A stretch of 34,746 nt of DNA, from positions 1 through 34,746 of IMG/VR virus record IMGVR_UViG_3300013126_000116; one strand, 5' to 3'. Positions within the stretch are counted from its first letter, which is position 1, and each line of letters begins with the position of its first letter. The stretch is from a virus. Lineage: Duplodnaviria > Caudoviricetes. A model generated the notes under the pieces. It was not told the origin of the DNA. It saw only the letters and a program-made list of their open reading frames with translations, and made no database searches. Positions 6,940 through 25,811 of the stretch are shown one piece after another. The position numbers were made by a program, and so were the translations under genes.

Positions 6940-7470
6940 TTACGTTTTATTATAAATATGATCAATAATCATTTTTACGCGATTTTCAGTTGAACCACTT
7001 ATTTTTAATAAATTTTTAGGAGGATATCTTTCAAGTAAATTTTGAATTTGATAATCAATTTGGTCTCTATAATCACTGTTTGTTTCTCGTACTCCGTTAT
7101 TTTCAATACTTACACCTTCCGGACTAACATAAATAACAAGATCATACTCATCTTTTAAATACATTGCTGCATGTTCAAAATCATACTTTTGATGATCAGG
7201 AATACTTTGTGCTAATGCTGTAAATGCACAAACATCCCAAATAGTTCTATCTGTGAGAACTCTAGACATCATAAGCTCTGCACTTCTTTCTGCTAAAAAT
7301 ACAAATTGTCCTTTTAAAGTTGAATCAGTATTCAAAGGAATACCCATATTCATTAAGTATTTACTTCTTTCTGTAGCAGTTTGATAATGAGCAAAGTGAA
7401 AATCTGCTCTTAAAGCATTTACTAACGTAGTTTTACCTACACTCATTGTACCTGTTAATCCTATTTTCAT
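6940..7470 (-). CDS. P-loop NTPase/kinase, AAA_28 (NadR C-terminal-like) family
   Basis: MKIGLTGTMSVGKTTL Walker A at the N-terminus, VLTDRT Walker B region, YDLVIY and ENNGVRE lid-type motif. Confidence 0.8.
   Translation of the reverse strand: MKIGLTGTMSVGKTTLVNALRADFHFAHYQTATERSKYLMNMGIPLNTDSTLKGQFVFLAERSAELMMSRVLTDRTIWDVCAFTALAQSIPDHQKYDFEHAAMYLKDEYDLVIYVSPEGVSIENNGVRETNSDYRDQIDYQIQNLLERYPPKNLLKISGSTENRVKMIIDHIYNKT
6952..6959 (-). promoter_or_regulatory. ATATTTAT motif (putative late promoter)
   Basis: Within the 3' end of the upstream gene, 14 nt before the ATG at 6937. Confidence 0.5.
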
Positions 7471-7731: not shown

Positions 7732-9081
7732 TTAAATAAAAAGTGTTAAATCTCCATCATACCATACATCTTCTAGATAGTATTTGTCGTTAAGTAAAGA
7801 CTCAGCAACATAAATACCTTGTGCACCACTTACTGTAATTCCTCTTGATGATAATGCATCTCCTACAAAATAAACATTTGGATATTTAGTAAGACTCAAA
7901 TTTTTATAATTAACAAGTGGTTCAGGTGAAAGATATTTTACTTCAGGTACATAAACTCCCCAATCATCACCAAAATCAAATACTTTATTCATGTCATCAA
8001 TGAAATTTTTAATGTAAGTCCAATACTCACCCATAGCTTCTTCAATTTGTGATGTTTCTACAACTGGATAACTATTAACCATTTCACCTTCTGATGTGAT
8101 TCCTGCTACTCTTGATGGGCTGTAATATAATCCCGTTCCATCTTTTTGTAATTTAGACACAACATTACGACTCCACTCAAATGGATTTTCAATTCCTTTG
8201 ATTTCCATAATAATACCAAAGTTAGTCATATTGTTTCTGTATTCTTCACCTTTTTTAGCATGACCATTATAAGTAATGTCACCATAAGTTTCTTCTACAG
8301 CAACATAAGCAGCGTTATTATTAGTACAGAATGAACGTAAACTAACATCATCAAACTTTTGATATAACTTAAAATCATAACTTACATCAATCAATTTTTG
8401 AAAATAATGTTGTGGTGCTTCAAATCGAACTCCAATCTGGACTGATTTAGGTTCGTCTGGTAGTTGGTATTGATTAGCTAATTGTTGAGCAAAATCAATT
8501 CCTGATTTGCCTACTGCAAATATAAGTTCATCATATTCAAACGAATGTTCTAGATCAGATTGTGGTACTATTACAGTTCCTATTTGATTTTCAAAGTCAA
8601 TAGCTGTTACTTTGGCTTCCCATTCAAATTTAACACCTTTTTCTTGTAAATAAGTATACCAATTTTTAGCAATTTCATGAAGATAATTACTACCAATATG
8701 ATACACAGGAAACATTCTTAAACCGAAATATGGTTTAATAAATTCAGGTTCTTCTTGAGGATTAGACAAATAAATTTCTGCTTCTTTAGGATGAAAACGT
8801 CTAAAATTTTCTATAACTTGATCCATCAAATCCATAGCTTTTTCTTCACCACAGTATTTTGATAATTGACCTCCAATTGCTGTGTGGTAAGTTAATTTAC
8901 CATCACTCCATCCTCCAGCTCCTAACATTCCTTCCATTACTTCTTCAGGAAGTCTGTTGTGAGGATCTTTACCCATATCAATAATAGTAATATCTCCTCC
9001 AGGATAACCATTATCTACCAATTTAGTTGCTGCATTGATGCCTGCAACACCTGCTCCTACAATAACTATTTTCATGCTCAT
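7732..9081 (-). CDS. FAD-dependent oxidoreductase (uncharacterised dehydrogenase, COG2509-like)
   Basis: Rossmann motif IVIVGAGVAG, GAGGWSDGKL, FAVGKSG, IGVRFE, RSFC, YNGHA, and C-terminal NVYFVGD...GI. Confidence 0.88.
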   Translation of the reverse strand: MSMKIVIVGAGVAGINAATKLVDNGYPGGDITIIDMGKDPHNRLPEEVMEGMLGAGGWSDGKLTYHTAIGGQLSKYCGEEKAMDLMDQVIENFRRFHPKEAEIYLSNPQEEPEFIKPYFGLRMFPVYHIGSNYLHEIAKNWYTYLQEKGVKFEWEAKVTAIDFENQIGTVIVPQSDLEHSFEYDELIFAVGKSGIDFAQQLANQYQLPDEPKSVQIGVRFEAPQHYFQKLIDVSYDFKLYQKFDDVSLRSFCTNNNAAYVAVEETYGDITYNGHAKKGEEYRNNMTNFGIIMEIKGIENPFEWSRNVVSKLQKDGTGLYYSPSRVAGITSEGEMVNSYPVVETSQIEEAMGEYWTYIKNFIDDMNKVFDFGDDWGVYVPEVKYLSPEPLVNYKNLSLTKYPNVYFVGDALSSRGITVSGAQGIYVAESLLNDKYYLEDVWYDGDLTLFI

Positions 9082-9119: not shown

Positions 9120-9371
9120 ATAAATTTTCAATTTAAGTTTACCATTTCCCTTAATAGCTCTATGCCATTTATGTTTAGGAATGTAGATTGGTTTATTTAA
9201 TGAAGTTGGTAATTCGTTGTCTAACTGTATTTTCCAATCTGTTTTGCCAATTATTTCAATTGTTCTGTCTTCATTATCTCGATGCCACATTAATTCTATA
9301 GGATCAATGTTTTCATCAAACTCCCTAATAATATATTTGTCAGTAACTTCTATATTAGTATAAGGTCTCAT
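9111..9371 (-). CDS. Small cupin-fold protein
   Basis: Cupin motif 1 (WHRD.E) and motif 2 (IYIPKHKWHR..KG.G.L). Confidence 0.75.
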   Translation of the reverse strand: MRPYTNIEVTDKYIIREFDENIDPIELMWHRDNEDRTIEIIGKTDWKIQLDNELPTSLNKPIYIPKHKWHRAIKGNGKLKLKIYLV

Positions 9372-9610
9372 TTAATAGGTTCCCACCAATTTGTACAATA
9401 TTCGTTAGCTTTATAAGGAATTTTATTAGTACCTGCCCATTCAACGTAATAAGTACTTGAACAAATTTGTTCTTCTTTATTCCACCATTTACAGTTAGCA
9501 CAACAAGAACCTCCTTTAGGTACTTTTAAACCGGCTTTATGAGTAGGTGGTAAAACCATTTCACCAGGTCCACCATAATTTTCAGTAAGTATATTAGTTA
9601 ACTTAAGCAT
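9368..9610 (-). CDS. Cys-rich small protein with N-terminal capsid-targeting-like tag
   Basis: Starts MLKLTNILTE; CCANC...C...YCTNWW, possibly metal-binding. Confidence 0.7.
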   Translation of the reverse strand: MLKLTNILTENYGGPGEMVLPPTHKAGLKVPKGGSCCANCKWWNKEEQICSSTYYVEWAGTNKIPYKANEYCTNWWEPIK

Positions 9611-9926
9611 TTTTATTTTTAATTAATAATTCACCTAAAACTTCTAAACGACCAACTTCTCTTTGAAATTCAATTTGAGACATGTCTAAAGAGATTTTTT
9701 TATAAGTTTCTTCAAATTCTTTTTTTGCTTTTTCTAAATCTAATTTACCTTCGCTTGCCTTTTTATAATATGGTAATTTAACTTTAAAATGATGCCAAGT
9801 TAAAAGTGCTAAACCTCCTTTTTTATGAGCATTATCAGCAATTTTTTTAGCTCCACCCATACGAGTTTGACTAAAATCTTCAAATTGGTTTTTTGCTTCT
9901 ACTAGTATGTCTTTAAACTTAATCAT
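9603..9926 (-). CDS. Hypothetical protein with N-terminal capsid-targeting-like tag
   Basis: Starts MIKFKDILVE; 8-nt overlaps with both neighbours. Confidence 0.7.
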   Translation of the reverse strand: MIKFKDILVEAKNQFEDFSQTRMGGAKKIADNAHKKGGLALLTWHHFKVKLPYYKKASEGKLDLEKAKKEFEETYKKISLDMSQIEFQREVGRLEVLGELLIKNKNA

Positions 9927-10377
9927 TTTTTAATCTTTGGGTTTTTCTTTTAGATGCTTCTTTTTTAGCAGTAATATATGTTAATCCTTTTTTTAAACGA
10001 GCTTTTACTTCAGGATTTTTTGCTTTACTGTATGCTGCTCTTACACGTTGGTGAATTAAATTAATAATTTGTGATTGACGAGCATGACTTTTTGATTTAA
10101 ATGATGATTTAGATAATGTATTTTTAATATCTTGAACAGTTTTAAATTTAACACCTACAGTATCTGTTGGATCTTCATCTGTATATAAACGACGACTTGA
10201 TCCTTTTGGTTTTTTACCAGTACCTACTTTAGGTTCATTACCTTCTAGATATCCTCTTTTCACAGCTAAATTTTGATCATTAGTCCAAATATCAGATGCT
10301 TTGTATCTAATTTTTGACACCATATTTGCTTTATATGGTGGATACATTTCATTTAATATGTCAAGTAATTTAATCAT
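9919..10377 (-). CDS. Basic hypothetical protein with N-terminal capsid-targeting-like tag
   Basis: Starts MIKLLDILNE; very basic domain beginning RRLYTDEDP after YLEG. Confidence 0.7.
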   Translation of the reverse strand: MIKLLDILNEMYPPYKANMVSKIRYKASDIWTNDQNLAVKRGYLEGNEPKVGTGKKPKGSSRRLYTDEDPTDTVGVKFKTVQDIKNTLSKSSFKSKSHARQSQIINLIHQRVRAAYSKAKNPEVKARLKKGLTYITAKKEASKRKTQRLKND

Positions 10378-11102
10378 TTTGTTTTACCCCATGTTTTACC
10401 TTTGCCGGGTCTTCTACATTGACTTGGGGTAGGACGACAAGAAGGATACTTTGATCTTACTTCTCCTTTTTTTCTTCCACAAGGTTTACATTTACCATCA
10501 CGACAAGTATTACAATCTACCCATCCTCCAGTTTTACCTGGTGCTCCTTTTCGTTTAAACCAAGTTCTTAATGTTTCTTTTTTAGCTTCGTCTAATTTAG
10601 ATTTTCTTTTTTCAATATAAGACTCAATATCTTCGGCTTTATAGCTCAATAATTGGCCTATTCTTCTAGCATCTTCATCGGTAGCTTCATATGATAAATA
10701 ACCGTTGTATTTTTCTGCTATGTCTTTTAATTCATTAGCTTCATTTTCAGCTTCTTTTACATAAAAAACATAAGCTCTATGAGGATTTGAAGGAACTTTA
10801 ACAACACCTAAATCAAATTTTTTTACAATGTCCCAAAAATTTTTTTCAGGAAAATCCATACCATCTAAAACTATAAAACCTAATTTTCGTTTTCCATCTA
10901 AAACAGTTTTTATAGAATCTTTATCTTCGTATGCTTCTTCAGCACTAATTTCTTCTTTTATTCCCTTCCAAATGTTTCCTTTACGACACCTAACAATAGC
11001 ACCAGACTTATATGCTGATGGCTTACTATAACGACGATCTGCTATACGTTTACAGCGATCTTCGGTAAGTACTTCAAGCAATATATTGGTAAGTTTAATC
11101 AT
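10374..11102 (-). CDS. Three-part hypothetical protein (basic Cys peptide / acidic domain / basic Cys-rich peptide) with N-terminal tag
   Basis: Starts MIKLTNILLE; PSAYKSGAIVRCRK module; IKEE and LDE boundaries; C-terminal LRTWF...WVDC..C...C..CGR...YPSCRP module. Confidence 0.72.
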   Translation of the reverse strand: MIKLTNILLEVLTEDRCKRIADRRYSKPSAYKSGAIVRCRKGNIWKGIKEEISAEEAYEDKDSIKTVLDGKRKLGFIVLDGMDFPEKNFWDIVKKFDLGVVKVPSNPHRAYVFYVKEAENEANELKDIAEKYNGYLSYEATDEDARRIGQLLSYKAEDIESYIEKRKSKLDEAKKETLRTWFKRKGAPGKTGGWVDCNTCRDGKCKPCGRKKGEVRSKYPSCRPTPSQCRRPGKGKTWGKTK

Positions 11103-11980
11103 GTATAAATTATAGTTTTTATTTCATCTGTAGGTACTAACTTACCGCCTACACTTTCTATTTTTTGTTTTATTTCTTCAAAGTTTTTTGGTTGTACGGT
11201 TACTTTAAAACTTTTTGGGTTTTCTTGAACAAACTTAAAAAAATCATTTAATGTAGGAAATAAATCTGTTATATTATTACGGTCATAACTATATTTTTTT
11301 ATTGATACAGCGTCACCGGGGATTTTTAAATACTGTTTCTTTTCTAAAAATGGTTTTAAAAATCCATATTTAGTTGATCTAAATGTTGTAACTTTTCTTA
11401 AAAATCTACGTTGGTTAAATATATAAATTCCAAATTCTTTTCTTATTCCCATTTCTACACTTCCATACTGTACTGCTAATCTTCTTTCTTCTTCTCTAGG
11501 TAACTCTATATTAAAAGTTTCTGTTACTGTAAAATCTAGTTTATTTACGTTATCATCTATTTTTATTTTTCTTAAGGCTTGAGTTAAATCAATGCCTTGA
11601 GTTAAATCAGAAGTAGGAGCAGCTGTAACTGTAAATTCATCATCTATGTCTACTCCTAAATCTTTTGCTTTAATAGCTGCGCCTTCTACAGGCATTATAA
11701 TACCATTTTGCAATAAAGATTTTATAAATGTACTAGCATTACCTGTTCCTTTAATGTTAAATACTTTTTTAATGTCATCTACATTAAAGTGGTTTATGTC
11801 TTCTAAAGATTCTATTTTCAAAACAATGTCTTGAAATCTAGATCCTGAACCTCTAACGTTAGATAATTTACTTTCCCAGTCATCTGTTAAAGTATAAAAC
11901 TTTTTGATTTGTGGCATTTCAGCCAAATGTCTTTTTACAGCTTCTACTAGTATTGCTTTTATTAAATTTCTTTTTTCCAT
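11099..11980 (-). CDS. Hypothetical protein with a variant N-terminal tag and a possible winged-HTH domain
   Basis: MEKRNLIKAILVE...HLAE; segment NVDDIKKVFNIKGTGNASTFIKSLLQNGIIMP has a wHTH-like pattern. Confidence 0.6.
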   Translation of the reverse strand: MEKRNLIKAILVEAVKRHLAEMPQIKKFYTLTDDWESKLSNVRGSGSRFQDIVLKIESLEDINHFNVDDIKKVFNIKGTGNASTFIKSLLQNGIIMPVEGAAIKAKDLGVDIDDEFTVTAAPTSDLTQGIDLTQALRKIKIDDNVNKLDFTVTETFNIELPREEERRLAVQYGSVEMGIRKEFGIYIFNQRRFLRKVTTFRSTKYGFLKPFLEKKQYLKIPGDAVSIKKYSYDRNNITDLFPTLNDFFKFVQENPKSFKVTVQPKNFEEIKQKIESVGGKLVPTDEIKTIIYT

Positions 11981-11981
11981 A

Positions 11982-12614
11982 TTACCAAAATCCTGAGTAT
12001 GATGATTTTAATCCTAAAAGTTTACTGTATCTTGGAAGTCTACAGCTCCAATAACTTGCTTTAGTTCTATCTTTTTTATTAGGACAATCGTGACGTTTTG
12101 AAAAAGCTGCTCTTGCTTTAGAATTATTAATTTTAGCAGATAAACCAGTAGTATCACCAAACGATACTTTTTTAACTCCACCACCTGGTTTTCTTACGTA
12201 AACATAGAATTTTTTAGATCCACCACGTTTTGGTTTACCAATTGGAGGTGTTTTTTTCTTCTTATCTGCTTCTTCTAAATCTACTTCTTCTAATAATAAA
12301 TCTATTGGAACTAACTTACCATTATAAAAGTCAAATGTGCCAATTTCTGTTTCTTCTAAAAGTTGTTTATCAGCTCCATCAAAAGTTATTTGTTTATTTT
12401 CGTGTAACCATCTAGCTTCTTGCCATAAGTCAAGAAAAGATTCACTACCATATCTAAATGTATTTTCAGTAATAGGAAGTTTTTGATAAACATGATATAA
12501 CATGTTAGGACTAATTTTTTCTGGATTAGTCGATTCTGTCAATAAAGGAGCTTTAGGTCTAGTACAAGTTGGACATCCTAATCCTTCTAATAATATGTCT
12601 TTTAATTTAATCAT
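11982..12614 (-). CDS. Hypothetical protein with N-terminal tag and basic C-terminal Cys/His domain
   Basis: Starts MIKLKDILLE; after LLLEE/LEE comes KKFYVYV...KKVSFGD...AFSKRHDC...ASYWSC. Confidence 0.72.
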   Translation of the reverse strand: MIKLKDILLEGLGCPTCTRPKAPLLTESTNPEKISPNMLYHVYQKLPITENTFRYGSESFLDLWQEARWLHENKQITFDGADKQLLEETEIGTFDFYNGKLVPIDLLLEEVDLEEADKKKKTPPIGKPKRGGSKKFYVYVRKPGGGVKKVSFGDTTGLSAKINNSKARAAFSKRHDCPNKKDRTKASYWSCRLPRYSKLLGLKSSYSGFW

Positions 12615-14365
12615 TTTGGTCTGTTTATTGATTTTACTTTTAAACTAGGAAGTATACCTCCTGCTGAATTTCTCATGTCTATTTGATAAATAGTTTCACC
12701 TCCTTCAGGACTATTAGTAGTAACTCTTACTTCACATGATTTACTTGATATTGATGGATATTTTACTTTTACATTAGTTACTTCTCCAATAAGTTCATCA
12801 ATGTCTTCTTTTTGATTTATGTCTTTTATGTAAAGTTCGCCTGGTCTGATTTGTCTTACGTAATAGTATCCATAACCATAGCTAGATCTTAAAAAATTAA
12901 TAATTTTTTGTCCATCATAATCAGTAATATCTTCCCATTGTGACGGTATTCCTTCTTGTTTAACATTATTTTCTAAACCATCTGCTATTTTTTCAGGATT
13001 AACACCAGTAATTTCAACAATTTTTTTAGTTAAACTATCATCTTTTATAAAACTATCTTCATCAAAATAAATATTTTTATCTGGACTTTGTTTAATGAAT
13101 TTTAAAGTTCCTCCATTGTAAACATAATCACCTTTTGGATCTTTTAATGAAATTTTATAATCTTGACCATTAGCTTTAATAATAATATCAGCTATTTTTG
13201 TGCCTATATCTTCAGGTTCTTCTAAACTTGGTTGACGTTTAGTGTCTATTTTACCTGTACCCTCTACATCATCTGGACTTATAGTTTGAGGATTAATTTC
13301 AAGATAATCAAAGAGTTGTTTTACTTCTTCATCTTCTATATCTTTTAATTCTTTACCTGTATTTTGTTTTAGTTTTTCTACAAATTCTTTTTCATAAGCT
13401 TCACCTTTATTAGCACCTGATGCTAATATTACACCAACAGGTCCAAATTCAGTTTCAAAACTATACATAGAAAATTTATTACTGCCATAAGGTTTAACAT
13501 TTATACCTGTTTTAGGAGGAATAACTTTAATATTAGCGTCTGGGTAGAGAGTTTGTAGTAAAGCTTCAAACTGTTCACTAGGTATTTTATTTGGGTTTGC
13601 TACTCTTGAACTTTTGTTCATAGGTTTAAATCCAAATTCCTTATTTTCTTCAGAATTTAAAATTCTTTGAACTACTTTACCACTATTTTGACCAATAGAA
13701 CCTTCCAAAAGTAAAACTTGTCTTAATGCTATACGAAACGCTGTTGGATATTTTTTACCTATTTCTAAAAGAGTCTTTTTTTTTGACTCAACTAAAGGAG
13801 TAGTTGTTGTTTCTTCTGCTGTAGGTAAACTTTCATTTCCTGTTGGTGGAGCTCCTTCTCCGCCTCCTTCTGCGAATGGATTAGATCCTTCAGAAGGTAA
13901 TGGTGTTTCTGTAGATGTATTAGCAGTTGCTTCTTCACTTGGTTCAAGTCCTAACGGAGCTCCCATCATTAATAAGCGAGCTATAGCATCAATTGCTCTT
14001 CCTCGTTCTCCTACGTTTAATAAGTAGTATTTTTTACCAGCTATTTTAGCAATCCAAGTTCTTCCCATGTAAATCATGTAAAAAAACTGGTTATTATGTA
14101 AAATTACTTTAAAAGTTGTTGGAATAGGAGCAATAACATAAATACCTGTTATATAATCTAAAAAATCATTACTAAGTAATGTTTGAAGAGATTCTTTTAA
14201 GGTAGGATAACTATAAAGTATATAACCTATTGGATCTTCTTCAAATGTAGGAATTTTTTTAGTGTCTTTATTAAACTTTTCAATGTAAGCTTTATCCGTT
14301 TCCTTAGATGTGCGGAATTTTTGGTATTCTTCGTCGAATATTTTTTGAAAAGTTTTAATATTCAT
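12611..14365 (-). CDS. Two-domain protein with a putative C-terminal restriction-endonuclease-fold (PD-(D/E)XK-like) domain
   Basis: N-terminal domain, then a P/E/G/T-rich linker ending in LVE, LLE and LLLE, then NKGEAYE...IADIII...YKISLK (E...D...SxK pattern). Confidence 0.6.
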   Translation of the reverse strand: MNIKTFQKIFDEEYQKFRTSKETDKAYIEKFNKDTKKIPTFEEDPIGYILYSYPTLKESLQTLLSNDFLDYITGIYVIAPIPTTFKVILHNNQFFYMIYMGRTWIAKIAGKKYYLLNVGERGRAIDAIARLLMMGAPLGLEPSEEATANTSTETPLPSEGSNPFAEGGGEGAPPTGNESLPTAEETTTTPLVESKKKTLLEIGKKYPTAFRIALRQVLLLEGSIGQNSGKVVQRILNSEENKEFGFKPMNKSSRVANPNKIPSEQFEALLQTLYPDANIKVIPPKTGINVKPYGSNKFSMYSFETEFGPVGVILASGANKGEAYEKEFVEKLKQNTGKELKDIEDEEVKQLFDYLEINPQTISPDDVEGTGKIDTKRQPSLEEPEDIGTKIADIIIKANGQDYKISLKDPKGDYVYNGGTLKFIKQSPDKNIYFDEDSFIKDDSLTKKIVEITGVNPEKIADGLENNVKQEGIPSQWEDITDYDGQKIINFLRSSYGYGYYYVRQIRPGELYIKDINQKEDIDELIGEVTNVKVKYPSISSKSCEVRVTTNSPEGGETIYQIDMRNSAGGILPSLKVKSINRPK

Positions 14366-15677: not shown

Positions 15678-16187
15678 TTATAATAAATATTTAAAAGTTA
15701 ATTTTTGCTTAAAATATTTTACTGATTTAGATCTTTTATATATATTATTAATAATACTTCGTGGATTTATATTTAAATATTCTGATGCTTCTTTTACCGA
15801 TTTAAATGTTTTATTTAGTTCTACACATTGAACTTGTTTTCCATTTCTATCTGATACTAATTGTTTAAATCCATTAGGTTTTGATTTTTTTAATTTTTGT
15901 TTTGTTTCTTCTGATCTGGTCCAGGCTCCATTTCCTTTTTCTTGGTTTAGATTACATAAATTTTTATATCCTATTTGTTTACAAAATTCTGCTTCTAATT
16001 CAAATGCTTTTTCTTCACTAATATTATTAACTAATATAATTGTTTCAAAATCATGTTTATTTACAATATTTTTCCAATGTTGATTTCTATCTAACTTATA
16101 CCATGCTCTTCTTCCTGTGCCCTTTCCAATATAAAAACATTTACCATCAGTTTTTTTTACATGAGAATATACATAGAATTTATTCAT
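15678..16187 (-). CDS. GIY-YIG homing endonuclease with NUMOD-type DNA-binding C-terminus
   Basis: FYVY...FYIGKG..RR, AFELE, CNL..E; RSEETKQKL (NUMOD3-like) and VQCVELNKTFKSVKEASEYLNI (NUMOD1/HTH-like). Confidence 0.85.
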   Translation of the reverse strand: MNKFYVYSHVKKTDGKCFYIGKGTGRRAWYKLDRNQHWKNIVNKHDFETIILVNNISEEKAFELEAEFCKQIGYKNLCNLNQEKGNGAWTRSEETKQKLKKSKPNGFKQLVSDRNGKQVQCVELNKTFKSVKEASEYLNINPRSIINNIYKRSKSVKYFKQKLTFKYLL

Positions 16188-16213
16188 ATAATAAAGTTTT
16201 ATTTAATATCCAA
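16187..16213 (-). promoter_or_regulatory. TTGG-N14-TTTATTATA motif
   Basis: Minus strand TTGGATATTAAATAAAACTTTATTATA; its last base is the A of the GIY-YIG start codon. Confidence 0.4.
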
Positions 16214-16795
16214 ATATGTGTCAATTTTAGCTCTTTGGTCAGCAATCCATTGTTTAGTTTCTTTTATTTGTTCTGGAGTTAAACCCTTACCATCCCAACT
16301 TTCTACTTCTCCAGTTTCACTCATAATTTTTTCAAAACCGTTATTAACAAAATCGTCAAATTCTTTTTCGGTTTGGTCTAAAATGTGTTTGTGGTTTTTA
16401 AAATACATGTTCTTCGCGTAGTCATCAAATGTGCCGGCCAATTTCATGTTAGTTTCTTCTCTAGTCACACATTTTGGACATTTATGCGCGAGTTTGTAAA
16501 TATGTTTTACATATTCACTTTGTCTAGCTAATGGCTCATTACATTGAGGACAAGTAAGAGGCATAATATTTGTGTCTTTAAACTTAGCTAACTTACTTAC
16601 AGTGCGTTTTACACCATTTTTAATAGTCCATGTTTTACCATGTTCATCCCAAACGTCTCCTTCTTGTCTTTTTACTTGAGATTCATAACCTGCTTGAATT
16701 GAAGTTCTGTCTCCAGTTTTTTTAGTAACAATGTTACGCATTCGCTGAACTTCACGTTCAGTAAATTCTCTTTTTAGTAAAGTTTCTTTACTCAT
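16199..16795 (-). CDS. Hypothetical protein with a CxxC...CxxC zinc ribbon
   Basis: 198 aa; EGDVWDEHGKTWTIKNG, CPQC and CPKC. Confidence 0.75.
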   Translation of the reverse strand: MSKETLLKREFTEREVQRMRNIVTKKTGDRTSIQAGYESQVKRQEGDVWDEHGKTWTIKNGVKRTVSKLAKFKDTNIMPLTCPQCNEPLARQSEYVKHIYKLAHKCPKCVTREETNMKLAGTFDDYAKNMYFKNHKHILDQTEKEFDDFVNNGFEKIMSETGEVESWDGKGLTPEQIKETKQWIADQRAKIDTYLDIK

Positions 16796-19094
16796 ATTTA
16801 AATTTATATAACTTTTTTATTGATTCTGTTGAGTCTTTTGGATTATTTTTTATTCCTGTTCCACCAGCTTCAATAAACTGACTAACATTTGAACCCATAT
16901 CATCAATCAACATGTAACCTGGTTTTGCTTCTGTGTGTTTTTCTTTTGCTTGTTTGTAAACTCTGTGGTTTAGTGGAATATTTAGGTGTTTATCTACCCA
17001 AAGATTTTTACCTTTCTTAGCATCTCCGTTTGGGTCTAAACCAGGACTTGATAAAATCCATACTTCAAAATTTTTAGCTTTAGCTAATTCCATAACTTTA
17101 TTGTAAAGTTGTTGTCCACCTGGATTCCAAGGCATTTCACTCCAAAACTTTACTTTACCTTTATTGATTATATCCCAAGCTTTACTTGAACCATATTTCC
17201 CAATGTATTCTTTAAACTCTAAACCTTCATCGTTGTATTTTGTAAATTGTTCATCAAAACCTGCTAATACTCCATCTAAATCAAAATAGATTCTTGTAAT
17301 AGGAGGATTAGATTGTTTAACTTCATTTAACATTCCAATATTATAAATGTCAGGATTTTGTTTTCCATAGTCTCTCATTAAAATACCGGCAATAGCATTA
17401 GCATCATTTTCATGTTCACTACCAGTTTCACCTGAATCGGGTTGTAATAGCCCCATTTCATTTTGTTTAGCATGAACTAATTCATGAGCTAATGTGCGAA
17501 GAACATCTACTACGTTTCTGTTACTAGGATTGATAGATATGTGGTGATTTGACGGGACATATGCTCCAAAACTTGGTTGATCTTCACCATACTCATATCT
17601 AACCTCAAATGTAGGAGGATTATGAATTTGAAGTTCATTACAAGCATAAGCCATAAATTTTTCAAAAAGTGAAGTCTTGTCAACAGATTCAACTAAAGAT
17701 AAAGTTTTATCTATAAAAGAATTTTTTAAATTATTAAGTTTTTCTAAGTAACCTGTGTTTCTTAAATTTTTAAATGCTAAATTTTCTAATGAATATTCAC
17801 CATCTTCATCTAATCCAGACTGTCTAAAGTTTTTAAGACGTTCTTTTATTTTATTTGTAAGTTCTATTGCTTTTTCAGGATCATCTTTACCTATTTTTTC
17901 TAACTTATCTATTTGTTGTTTAAATAACTTTGCCTTTTTTTCAATTTCTTCATCAGGAATGTCTATTTCTACAAAAGATGGTTTACGTAACCACTTATCA
18001 CTCATTAAACTATATTCGCCTCTGTATTTAGGATGATCTTCATTATCTTGAATATAAACTTCAATATTTTGTTTACCTAATTTTAAATCATGAACTCGAT
18101 TCCAATTGACTTTTGCTTCATCAAAGTATTTTTTTAACAACTCAAGATTTTCAAATTTATCAAAATCAACAACAATGTGTAAATCTATGTCAGATGTTGG
18201 AGTATAGTTGTAATTAACACTACTTCCTGTTAAAAGAATATCTTCAAACGGCTCAGGTATTTCTAATCCTTCCCAAAAATAATTAGCTATTTTTAATAAT
18301 AATTCTCTTACTTCTGGGTCTACTTTATTGTCATTACCAAAAATAATAGGGTTTAATTTATTTTGGTTTTTGTATTCTAACCATACCCACTGAGGTTGTT
18401 TTTTAGGATTTGGTTGATTACCTTCTTGTAAACTAGCTGGTTCAGGAAAATTAATATTTAAAACTCTTTGAATGTCATCTAAGTATCCTTTTTGTATTAC
18501 TGCTTCAGGAAATAAACTTTTAAAGTAATTATATGTAGTATTATAATCGTTTAAAGCTTTTTTATCACCGGGGTTGTTTTTTACTTGAAGATATCTTTGT
18601 CTTAATTCAGCTATTGTAGCTCTAAAGTCAGTTCCACTAACTCTATCACCATCACTATCTATAAACTGATCATCTACAATCTCTTCTTGGACCCTGTCGC
18701 CAAAAGCTTCTTTTAAACCTTCAAAATATTTTAAATCATCTGCTTCTTTACCAGCAGCAGCGACATAAGCTTCTCTATTTAAATCATCTCCAAACCATCT
18801 ATAAAGATCTTTAATTGGAGATTTAGTTTGTGAAATTTCAGCTACAATTTTTGGATTTGGTTGTGCCTTTAAGTAAATATCCCAAATTGCTTTACTTTGT
18901 TCTGCTGTAATTCCACCTCTTTTACCATGACCGATTAATACTTTTACTTGAGTAATGTAAGGTTTTGATGCTAGTTGTTGAGCTGCAGAAAGATGACCTT
19001 TATGGGGTGGTTTAAAACCTCCTGGATACCAACAAATTTCTGGTTTTTTGGCTACTTCTTCTCCTATTAATTTTCCTATTTCTGCAATATTCAT
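16788..19094 (-). CDS. Four-domain enzyme: HxGH cytidylyltransferase-like + pol-beta-type nucleotidyltransferase + HExxH metallopeptidase + HAD 5'(3')-nucleotidase-like
   Basis: YPGGFKPPHKGH (aa 23-34) with VSGT; LTGS...SDIDLH...IEVY (aa 288-347); RTLAHELVH...E (HELVH aa 537-541); IYFDLDGVL (aa 602-610), ILSS, K, LIDD (aa 729-732). Confidence 0.85.
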   Translation of the reverse strand: MNIAEIGKLIGEEVAKKPEICWYPGGFKPPHKGHLSAAQQLASKPYITQVKVLIGHGKRGGITAEQSKAIWDIYLKAQPNPKIVAEISQTKSPIKDLYRWFGDDLNREAYVAAAGKEADDLKYFEGLKEAFGDRVQEEIVDDQFIDSDGDRVSGTDFRATIAELRQRYLQVKNNPGDKKALNDYNTTYNYFKSLFPEAVIQKGYLDDIQRVLNINFPEPASLQEGNQPNPKKQPQWVWLEYKNQNKLNPIIFGNDNKVDPEVRELLLKIANYFWEGLEIPEPFEDILLTGSSVNYNYTPTSDIDLHIVVDFDKFENLELLKKYFDEAKVNWNRVHDLKLGKQNIEVYIQDNEDHPKYRGEYSLMSDKWLRKPSFVEIDIPDEEIEKKAKLFKQQIDKLEKIGKDDPEKAIELTNKIKERLKNFRQSGLDEDGEYSLENLAFKNLRNTGYLEKLNNLKNSFIDKTLSLVESVDKTSLFEKFMAYACNELQIHNPPTFEVRYEYGEDQPSFGAYVPSNHHISINPSNRNVVDVLRTLAHELVHAKQNEMGLLQPDSGETGSEHENDANAIAGILMRDYGKQNPDIYNIGMLNEVKQSNPPITRIYFDLDGVLAGFDEQFTKYNDEGLEFKEYIGKYGSSKAWDIINKGKVKFWSEMPWNPGGQQLYNKVMELAKAKNFEVWILSSPGLDPNGDAKKGKNLWVDKHLNIPLNHRVYKQAKEKHTEAKPGYMLIDDMGSNVSQFIEAGGTGIKNNPKDSTESIKKLYKFKYE

Positions 19095-19933
19095 GGTTTA
19101 GCAAATGTTTTTACTGCTCCTACTGCTTCTCTATAATTAAGAGGTTTAATAATTTTTAAAAACTTCTCAACAGTTTTAAATTGATCTTTAATATTTTTAA
19201 CAGCATCACTAAATTTCTTTTCAGCTGCTTTTTTCTTTTCTTCTTTTGCTTTTAAAATTTCAGGATCTGGCAAGTCTTTTGATGTTTCTATGTCGGATGG
19301 TTTAGGTTTTTTAAAACTTGATCTGTATTTTTCTGGATCTTTTTGTATTAATTGTTTAAAATAATCTTCTAACTCACCTGATTTTAATACTTTTTCAAAT
19401 TTATTAACATTTGCTTTTTCTCCAGGAGATAATTCTGTTTGAACAACTAAATACTCAATACCAGGGATACTTTTATAACTACTTATTTGATTATAAACTT
19501 TAGCCCAGTTATTTAACACAACTTCTTTAGGTAATTTTCTACTTCTATTAAAATTTCTTAAAAAACTAACAATAGGACTTCCGTAAAGTGTAATAACCAT
19601 TACTTTATAACCATTTTGCTGAGCTTGATTTACAATTTCTGCTGTTTCTTTAAAATTTTGTCCTGTAGTATCATAAATAAAATTTTGTTTTTTACTTATA
19701 GCATCAGGAATAGCTTTAGTTCTTATAATAATATTATTTTTACTTATATTAGGTCTATCAGGATCATCTTCTGGGTTAAAAGTATCTGGATTAAATACTC
19801 TAAAATCTGAAGGTATATTTCTTATTAGATCATTTATTAAAGTTGATTTACCCATTCCTGCTGCTCCTGATAAAATTATTGCTTTTGGTTGGGTGCCAAA
19901 AACTTCTAATAATAAAGATTGCAGATTAATCAT
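19091..19933 (-). CDS. P-loop kinase, zeta-toxin/AAA_33 (PNK-kinase-like) family, with N-terminal tag
   Basis: MINLQSLLLE tag; AIILSGAAGMGKS Walker A; FNPD; FIYDTTG; RNFNRSRKLP lid motif. Confidence 0.8.
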   Translation of the reverse strand: MINLQSLLLEVFGTQPKAIILSGAAGMGKSTLINDLIRNIPSDFRVFNPDTFNPEDDPDRPNISKNNIIIRTKAIPDAISKKQNFIYDTTGQNFKETAEIVNQAQQNGYKVMVITLYGSPIVSFLRNFNRSRKLPKEVVLNNWAKVYNQISSYKSIPGIEYLVVQTELSPGEKANVNKFEKVLKSGELEDYFKQLIQKDPEKYRSSFKKPKPSDIETSKDLPDPEILKAKEEKKKAAEKKFSDAVKNIKDQFKTVEKFLKIIKPLNYREAVGAVKTFAKP

Positions 19934-25244: not shown

Positions 25245-25811
25245 TTATATATATTTAAATGTTATTTTTTGTTTATTATATTTTACTGATTTAGATAATC
25301 CTGATATCTGATTTCCTATTGTTCTTGAGTTTAAATTTAATTTTATACTGGCTTCTTGTAAACTGATGAATGTTAAATTTAATTCATTACAATAAACTGG
25401 TTTATACTTAGAAAGGTGAGGTTTTTCATTTCCTTTTCTTTTTTTAGGTTTTCCAGTCATTACAAAACTTCTATATTGTTTTTCATCTTTTGATTGAACT
25501 CTACCTTTATTTTTTTTACTTATTTTTTGTTTTGTTTCTTCTGATCTAATTTTTCCTTTGTTTGTTTTAGAAGATAATTCAGATAAAATTTTATAATCTA
25601 GTTTCATTCTTTTAGCTAATGCTAAACAAGCACCCCAATCATTTTGTTTTAAATGAATATCATAGTGTTCTTGAATAGATAATGCTATTAAATTATTAAT
25701 ATTATTATTTTTTTTATTTCCATCAATATGGTGTATATCATAAACCCTACCTAAATTATCTTTAGGAATAAAACTATGATGTTTTAAATATATTCTTCTA
25801 TAGGGTGCCAT
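25245..25811 (-). CDS. HNH homing endonuclease with NUMOD-type C-terminus
   Basis: YDIHHIDGNKKNNNINNLIALSIQEH..IH; RSEETKQKIS; PVYCNELNLTFISLQEASIKLNL. Confidence 0.88.
   Translation of the reverse strand: MAPYRRIYLKHHSFIPKDNLGRVYDIHHIDGNKKNNNINNLIALSIQEHYDIHLKQNDWGACLALAKRMKLDYKILSELSSKTNKGKIRSEETKQKISKKNKGRVQSKDEKQYRSFVMTGKPKKRKGNEKPHLSKYKPVYCNELNLTFISLQEASIKLNLNSRTIGNQISGLSKSVKYNKQKITFKYI

Follow-up and report, generated by a model that had tools for sequence, protein, structure and literature searches.

Can a tailed phage carry several enzymes in its capsid as one chain and leave it to its own head protease to take them apart? This question is raised by a 34,746-nt stretch of virus DNA assigned to Caudoviricetes (IMG/VR record IMGVR_UViG_3300013126_000116, analyzed at its full length and called the window below), in which a minus-strand open reading frame (ORF) at 16788-19094 encodes a 768-aa product. 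An earlier note on this DNA had described the product as four fused enzymes, packaged as a polyprotein and cut at L-x-E sites at the three domain junctions. The ORF is present as claimed, the motifs LQE (E224, 18423-18425), LVE (E469, 17688-17690) and LNE (E591, 17322-17324) lie exactly where they had been placed, and the four modules can be recognized by HKGH at residues 31-34, by GSS 290, DID 302 and E345, by HELVH 537-541 with E562, and by DLDG 605. We found a modular chain whose junction motif is under protein-level constraint and at whose junctions cassettes are exchanged, together with a gp21-type protease in a near-identical phage. Comparisons of related sequences support the reading of a packaged polyprotein cut at its L-x-E junctions, and we consider it probable that this T4-like freshwater phage loads a chain of four enzyme-like modules into its capsid, where the head protease cuts it, and that the products are injected.

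Junction conservation and cassette exchange

The whole protein contains 6 L-x-E tripeptides against 5.6 expected (11 against 10.0 for [LI]-x-E), which bears out the earlier caveat that they are common by chance. As the total is at chance level it was dropped as evidence, and it is position and conservation that carry the case. Of 20,000 shuffles, 19 had an L-x-E in each of the three junction segments and 107 an [LI]-x-E, these segments having been chosen post hoc, after the structure model. This AlphaFold model of the 768-aa chain (29 sequences in the alignment, mean predicted local distance difference test score (pLDDT) 78, predicted template modeling score 0.35) has five stretches with pLDDT <50. 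The three longest (224-246, 462-471 and 588-595) are the three junctions, and the remaining two are short loops (294-296 and 502-506). Disordered linkers had been proposed as a check, and the junctions are the only three long low-confidence inter-domain stretches, each with its L-x-E.

Conservation was followed in a close set made up of the query and the best 120 of 262 proteins, a redundant set that includes the window's own protein; junction counts refer to sequences in which both flanking modules were found. L-x-E was kept at junction 1 in 118/118, at junction 2 in 119/119 and at junction 3 in 108/110 sequences, the two exceptions being MNE and INE, so that [LIVM]-x-E is present at junction 3 in 110/110. 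Among 29 chosen homologues, E129 was kept in 18, E163 in 15, E281 in 20, E430 in 3 and E478 in 16; E591 scores 24/29 because four of the proteins stop there and one has MNE. Two N-terminal sites had also been named earlier. IGE12 stood, being kept in 29/29 of these homologues, and IAE5, kept at E5 in just 15/29, was rejected as a cleavage site.

The proposal that homologues might shuffle domains while keeping L-x-E at the junctions gave a clearly positive result, with inserts at the junctions ending in [LIVM]-x-E. Inserts start directly after E591 in relatives that share 93-99% identity across residues 1-591, and in others after E224; the record is held by P0010 (1319 aa), with up to four extra modules after E591. 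At junction 3, 32/35 distinct insert-bearing linkers end in L-x-E and 35/35 in [LIVM]-x-E, the corresponding figures at junction 1 being 1/5 and 5/5. Insert-start probes without the motif gave 13 internal matches, and 10/13 were preceded by L-x-E (10/10 at junction 3) against a background of 135/7106 positions (1.9%); the three misses come from one P0068 probe matching within the DUF5661 module. The cassettes comprise ParB-like domains (phrog_17560, phrog_723), a 41-aa zinc ribbon, DUF5661, a TPR-like module and a second zincin. The TPR-like module is found at junction 1 in P0068 and at junction 3 in P0008, P0010 and P0100.

At the DNA level, alignments with loci L003 and L106 run up to the final base of the E591 codon, and where they take up again they overlap by 8 bases in the junction codons. 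A contig from another study (X8 record 19) runs through junction 3 (16796-17494) with a single difference and no insert, and X9 record 25 has ~370 extra bases at this junction, so independent runs show both forms; the X4 and X5 contigs break at 17319/17322. With a second contig (record 13) covering junctions 1 and 2, other-study contigs span all three junctions, and an assembly chimera was rejected.

Alternatively, the product could be an uncut polyvalent protein from which the leader alone is removed, the internal L-x-E being leftover leaders of once separate genes that now act as short recombination homologies. The insert boundaries overlap 8 bases of the junction codons, stand-alone modules have leaders ending in L-x-E so that fusion would leave one behind, and certain polyvalent proteins are packaged or transferred unprocessed (PMC5512222; each paper is cited here by its PMC number and for part of its text). 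Yet the middle codon of the junctions varies (CAA, GTT, AAT, ACA, GAT, AAA, AAC) and the leucine is written as TTA, TTG or CTA; no fixed DNA word is kept, which weakens a DNA-only reading. In addition, L/I and E are retained at 35-50% identity while the neighboring residues change, and a motif exposed in the prohead would presumably be hard to keep uncut. We regard an uncut chain as unlikely.

Distant homologues and identity of the modules

The distant set consisted of 149 new representatives of 50%-identity clusters, taken from the best 150 of 7620. The module-2 C-terminal motif was present in 122/149 of these proteins, 114 of which continue beyond it. L-x-E stands at the query's exact offset in 83 of the 114; at offsets of 17-24 the counts are 107 for [LI]-x-E and 112 for [LIVM]-x-E, compared with 1-11 of 114 in the spacing controls. 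One family of long chains accounts for 74/114 (74/74 with [LI]-x-E), and the rest score 33/40, five of the seven misses being V-x-E or M-x-E. The long-chain family (P0153-P0270) comprises at least 74 chains of up to 2288 aa, which begin with module 2 and continue with a zincin and long variable tails, all of them carrying [LI]-x-E after module 2.

Of the eight distant proteins that end at module 2, seven are without the glutamate, some perhaps as cut-off contigs, and the complete stand-alone module-2 genes of S-CREM2 and S-CRM01 end in ...LSLK and ...LSL, with no E. Fused copies with E and stand-alone copies without it thus tie the glutamate to the downstream partner and not to the domain. Distant chains have [LI]-x-E after module 1 in 15/18 and after module 3 in 69/99 ([LIVM]-x-E 89/99; controls 11-39), and an [LI]-x-E leader is present in 21/25 distant proteins starting with module 1. 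Judged by these sequences, the junction motif of the clade is broader than L-x-E, namely [LIVM]-x-E.

The set of modules itself varies. At the more distant loci L012, L015, L125, L126, L128 and L129, modules 1, 3 and 4 occupy the corresponding gene slot together with other cassettes, module 2 being absent. The HAD module is a separate gene with its own leader in L006, L014, L113 and Flavobacterium phage immuto_2-6A (immuto below), the nearest cultured relative (portal 55%), which has the same gene order; the leaders of such stand-alone HAD genes end in L-x-E or similar.

Module 1 carries the HxGH motif and has a predicted nucleotidyltransferase Rossmann-like fold. Its fold matches are 5llt (Z 11.7, root-mean-square deviation (rmsd) 3.5, 168 aligned), 3h05 (Z 11.1) and 2qjt (Z 11.0), with PPAT 4nah also near (Z 10.5), and its Pfam and NCBIfam hits are below cut-off, all of the latter far below. 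In one lineage (P0109, P0110, P0111, P0120, P0121) its motif SGTxFR is eroded with the junctions intact, possibly through decay of the module-1 enzyme.

Module 2 has the GS...DxD...D/E catalytic motif of the Pol-beta nucleotidyltransferase superfamily and, as predicted, a palm fold. It is narrowly above the Pfam NTP_transf_2 (PF01909) cut-off (21.6 and 22.8 bits vs. 21) and matches phrog_36119 with E 1e-45. Modeled alone (pLDDT 94), it gave best Foldseek rows that are all Pol-beta-type and weak (E 1.3e-3 or worse). The fold-search list was filled by helical bundles, and against the subfamilies (ANT, CD-NTase, MNT, TENT5) the fold search returned palm matches of Z 6.3-6.9 only, none of them whole-domain.

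For module 3, Pfam zincin matches are all sub-threshold, the other profile matches being phrog_87 (E 2.2e-5) and IrrE-like viral models. Alignment A1 shows no variation in the catalytic motifs of modules 2 and 3, HELVH and E562 of the latter included, and the G, S, D, D and E of module 2 are invariant in the distant alignment A2 as well. Module 4 combines the DxD motif (DLDG 605) and a terminal DD motif (LIDD 729) with the modeled cdN/mdN fold of a 5'(3')-deoxyribonucleotidase-like HAD. It matches 3bwv (Z 15.4, rmsd 2.4, 145 aligned), 6g2n (Z 15.0) and phrog_2643 (E 1.8e-20), Pfam NT5C being below cut-off. A PDB sequence search with alignment A1 gave no significant match.

Head protease, virion proteins and fate of the chain

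A locus whose portal is 96% identical to that of the window (L016) encodes a PF03420 S77 gp21-type protease (E 6.8e-32) 3.2 kb beyond the portal. The 80 portal loci encode 34 distinct proteases, of which 25 have [LI]-x-E in the C-terminal tail window, most others showing M-x-E or V-x-E by eye, and all 15 capsid proteins of the clade carry L-x-E within about their first 11 residues. T4 gp21 cuts after L/I-X-E, strips propeptides of 7-65 residues from mature proteins and fragments core proteins, and the capsid-targeting sequence of T4 is 10 residues long and processed at residues 8 and 10 (PMC9026906); the consensus given in the earlier note agrees with this. T4-type cargo has an N-terminal propeptide of ~7-20 residues ending in [LI]-x-E, and the chain begins with a candidate for one (IGE12).

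We propose that the 12-residue leader would draw the chain into the prohead, where the phage's own head-maturation protease would cut after E12, E224, E469 and E591, and that the freed proteins of ~24, 29, 14 and 20 kDa would be injected with the DNA. One leader could in this way load several effectors, and recombination at the junction codons could add or remove modules with packaging and release retained. We infer that packaging of the chain is very likely; cutting at the internal junctions, argued from motif conservation, appears highly probable, and injection of the products fairly likely.

Related proteins have been detected in virions. The S-CREM2 virion proteome comprises 52 proteins, including ORF156 at 126012-126725 (6 peptides, 15.2%; PMC10665884 Table 3), which is a stand-alone module-2 homologue (tblastn, 39% identity over residues 239-467) with a leader ending in ISE7. 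The HxGH cytidylyltransferase ORF154 of this phage was also detected in virions (PMC10665884); its leader ends in LTE10, and its similarity to module 1 is only at the superfamily level. NMNAT-like proteins are reported in S-SCSM1 and S-CBWM1 virions (PMC9602691). For S-CREM2 (218 of 219 annotated genes, one of 26 aa being excluded), [LI]-x-E in the first 18 residues was found in 11/30 detected proteins other than tail and neck, in 3/22 tail and neck proteins and in 24/166 undetected ones (Fisher P 0.008). The literature yielded no virion proteome for immuto, Maribacter phages or Mel-JY01. It was also observed that S-CREM2 ORFs 6, 13, 14, 136, 154 and 160 (L141, L143) are virion-detected non-structural proteins with T4-style leaders, and ORF160, with several internal [LI]-x-E sites, may be a polyprotein.

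A chain cut by the head protease could still serve another end, namely as prohead core, its pieces staying as filler or leaving the head and not acting as injected effectors. The many fragments of T4 core proteins mostly exit the head (PMC9026906), several inserted cassettes are very small or are not enzymes (41-aa zinc ribbon, DUF5661), and the erosion of SGTxFR in the module-1 lineage named above points the same way. However, the catalytic motifs of modules 2 and 3 in A1, and of module 2 in A2, are invariant, the products of 14-29 kDa correspond to folded domains, and homologous stand-alone enzymes are found in mature virions, which makes a core role improbable. Self-processing by the module-3 zincin, in the head or after injection, is the least probable course: Iyer et al. 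2017 propose autoproteolysis by zincin-like metallopeptidases (PMC5512222) and distant chains with modules 1 and 2 mostly include the zincin as well (130/149 reach its end), but the motif is shared with the gp21-type protease and the capsid protein, which carry it at their ends, and with cargo genes that lack a zincin, which carry it after their leaders.

Several points weigh against packaging and cutting by the head protease. No gp21-type protease gene is present on the window's own 34.7-kb contig, so that its presence is deduced from L016, and the cuts identified in SPN3US, apart from those in the protease itself, all take off N-terminal propeptides (PMC10052503). The homologue counts are not independent, the close set being redundant and 74 of the 114 distant proteins belonging to a single family. 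The linkers are rich in E, with module-3 spacing controls reaching 23-39/99 vs. 89 for [LIVM]-x-E, and the non-junction IKE418, in a predicted helix, is also conserved (27/29 chosen homologues). As inserts share 8 bases with the junction codons, the site is also a recombination homology. The polyprotein leader departs from the MIKLxDILxE-type pattern of its neighbors, and the authors of the S-CREM2 and S-SCSM1 studies caution that such proteins may co-purify (PMC10665884, PMC9602691). Finally, the cargo block of immuto is no denser in L-x-E than its replication genes: relative to expectation, density was 1.22x in both, 1.50x in the head block and 0.77-0.82x in the tail (194 plus-strand ORFs of at least 70 aa, own ORF caller). 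N-terminal motifs alone do separate these blocks (cargo 5/12, head 5/10, tail 0/14 and 0/19, replication 16/120).

As to the role of the products, their folds and NARP precedents (PMC13464706) tentatively suggest that they might reshape host nucleotide pools and blunt nucleotide-based defense at the start of infection. Module 1 would then be a putative NMN/NaMN adenylyltransferase and module 4 a putative nucleotidase, while module 2 might add a nucleotide to some target and module 3 might cut a host protein. NARP3 requires the PnuC transporter and a bifunctional NadR (PMC13464706); PnuC had no match among the 37 scanned ORFs of this incomplete genome.

Genome setting and relation to known systems

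Table 1. Features of the polyprotein gene and of neighboring genes in the window (strand "-" is minus).
Feature	Position	Strand	Basis or remark
Polyprotein gene	16788..19094	-	768 aa, 88 kDa predicted
Leader, 12 residues, ends I-G-E12; candidate capsid-targeting propeptide	19059..19094	-	Conservation
Module 1, aa 13-224, HxGH nucleotidyltransferase, NadD/NadM/PPAT fold	18423..19058	-	Fold match; profile hits sub-cut-off
Junction 1, L-Q-E224	18423..18431	-	DUF5661 and TPR-like cassettes of relatives inserted here; pLDDT <50 at 224-246
Module 2, aa 225-469, Pol-beta-type nucleotidyltransferase with C-terminal helical bundle (phrog_36119)	17688..18422	-	Profiles
Junction 2, L-V-E469	17688..17696	-	Conservation; middle residue V/N/T; pLDDT <50 at 462-471
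Module 3, aa 470-591, HExxH zincin-like metallopeptidase	17322..17687	-	Motif; sub-threshold profiles; Atlas lead
Junction 3, L-N-E591; main cassette insertion hotspot	17322..17330	-	Conservation; pLDDT <50 at 588-595
Module 4, aa 592-768, HAD phosphatase, 5'(3')-deoxyribonucleotidase-like	16791..17321	-	Fold and profile
Zeta-toxin-family P-loop kinase, upstream of polyprotein gene; own leader ends L-L-E10	19091..19933	-	PF06414 E 1.9e-12, above cut-off
Small-gene cluster; stand-alone cargo candidates	9368..12614	-	L-x-E ends at residue 10 in five, at residue 13 in one

The contig carries genes for portal, large terminase, primase, exonuclease and baseplate wedge. Sequencing runs that contain the stretch are mostly from lake water, freshwater sediment and drinking water, and RNA runs contain just 5-15% of its words. 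A promoter scan of the window was uninformative (47 sites vs. 45.7 expected), and a tRNA scan of it found none. L-x-E ends at residue 10 in 6/37 window ORFs, the zeta-family kinase included, and none of the 7 baseplate-block ORFs has an L-x-E anywhere in its first 20 residues. This kinase is likely co-packaged cargo, and the related loci compared also have a P-loop gene ahead of the polyprotein.

The genes of the small cluster have leaders of the MIKLxDILxE type, and several of them resemble short module strings. Its ORF 11982-12614 has 8 L-x-E vs. 1.5 expected, ORF 10374-11102 contains DUF5872, and the module of 9919-10377 is found inside related polyproteins too. The next gene (12611-14365, minus strand) encodes 584 aa with an acidic linker bearing L-x-E at 193, 201 and 221, followed by what by eye is a restriction-nuclease-like motif; its N-terminal part looks, again by eye, like the end of immuto gp079. 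After the portal block, a minus-strand gene at 514-1305 (263 aa, 7 L-x-E vs. 1.4 expected), whose L016 counterpart is 89 aa longer, is possibly a second cassette locus or a core protein. In nearly all relatives, immuto (gp086) among them, the HAD module is followed, at once or one gene later, by a zinc-ribbon protein that has no leader motif (16199-16795 on the minus strand of the window). The minus strand also encodes a nucleotide kinase at 6940-7470 (thymidylate kinase and NadR-like PHROG hits), a dehydrogenase-like protein at 7732-9081 and homing endonucleases at 15678-16187 and 25245-25811, the first of which is seemingly absent from this place in L002, L003, L100 and L101.

The system would work like the T4 internal proteins IPI-III and Alt, with which it shares a short N-terminal leader ending in [LI]-x-E, non-structural cargo predicted to be packaged and injected and, judging from L016, a gp21-type (S77) protease (PMC9026906). 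The T4 proteins, however, are single proteins trimmed at their ends, whereas here one leader precedes several enzymes with internal sites and module swaps. Polyvalent proteins (PMC5512222) are similar in their disparate enzyme domains, zincin-like peptidase, ParB-like domains, neighboring zeta-like kinase, rapid shuffling and predicted packaging. The chain falls within their broad definition, with several biochemically distinct domains fused in a single phage product and architectures that are shuffled; its HExxH zincin, whose Pfam hits are all below cut-off, may belong to the zincin-like metallopeptidase clades described there. For polyvalent proteins, in contrast, zincin autoproteolysis or no processing is proposed, and the part of that paper covered gives no head-protease motif at the junctions.

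Purified virions of S-CREM2 and S-SCSM1 contained an HxGH nucleotidyltransferase, and those of S-CREM2 also a true module-2 homologue, its ORF154 and ORF156 lying side by side with [LI]-x-E leaders. Unlike here, these proteins are separate genes, and no leader or cutting is mentioned in the text covered of PMC10665884 and PMC9602691. In immuto_2-6A (Immutovirus), an HxGH module is linked with zincins by [LVM]-x-E in gp088, and a HAD (gp087) comes next, but the module set is another one, with no module 2 and the HAD as a separate gene with its own leader.

Literature searches, with most subscription papers and supplements outside their scope, gave no description of head-protease sites between swappable cargo modules. 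No such junction system appears in the portions covered of PMC7824862, PMC9024508, PMC5694885, PMC12373910 and PMC13573597, and the word 'polyprotein' is absent from those of PMC13573597 and PMC5694885. Fused Ip2/Ip3 proteins are not shown by the part of PMC12373910 covered. We see the system as a variant both of T4 capsid-cargo processing and of the polyvalent proteins, with a junction arrangement new to the literature searched. The locus adds a near-identical insertion series, the contrast between stand-alone and fused module 2, and a link to a published virion proteome.

Beyond this phage, we lean towards a general cassette system in large T4-like aquatic phages, in which a capsid-targeting leader would head a series of effector modules of any length, each module ending in a head-protease site whose codons also act as a recombination joint. 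Effectors would be swapped within a population, enter the capsid as a single chain and come free there as separate enzymes, as a DNA-phage counterpart of RNA-virus polyproteins and an injected, shufflable counter-defense arsenal. The explanation is directly testable, since related cargo genes are present in phages already in culture (immuto_2-6A, S-CREM2). If it is true, gp21-type proteases would release several working enzymes from one precursor, beyond propeptide trimming and scaffold clearance. With this motif, long hypothetical phage proteins could then be parsed by the thousand into their real products, candidate injected effectors and counter-defense enzymes could be listed, and these phages would offer a natural route for loading multiple proteins in one capsid.

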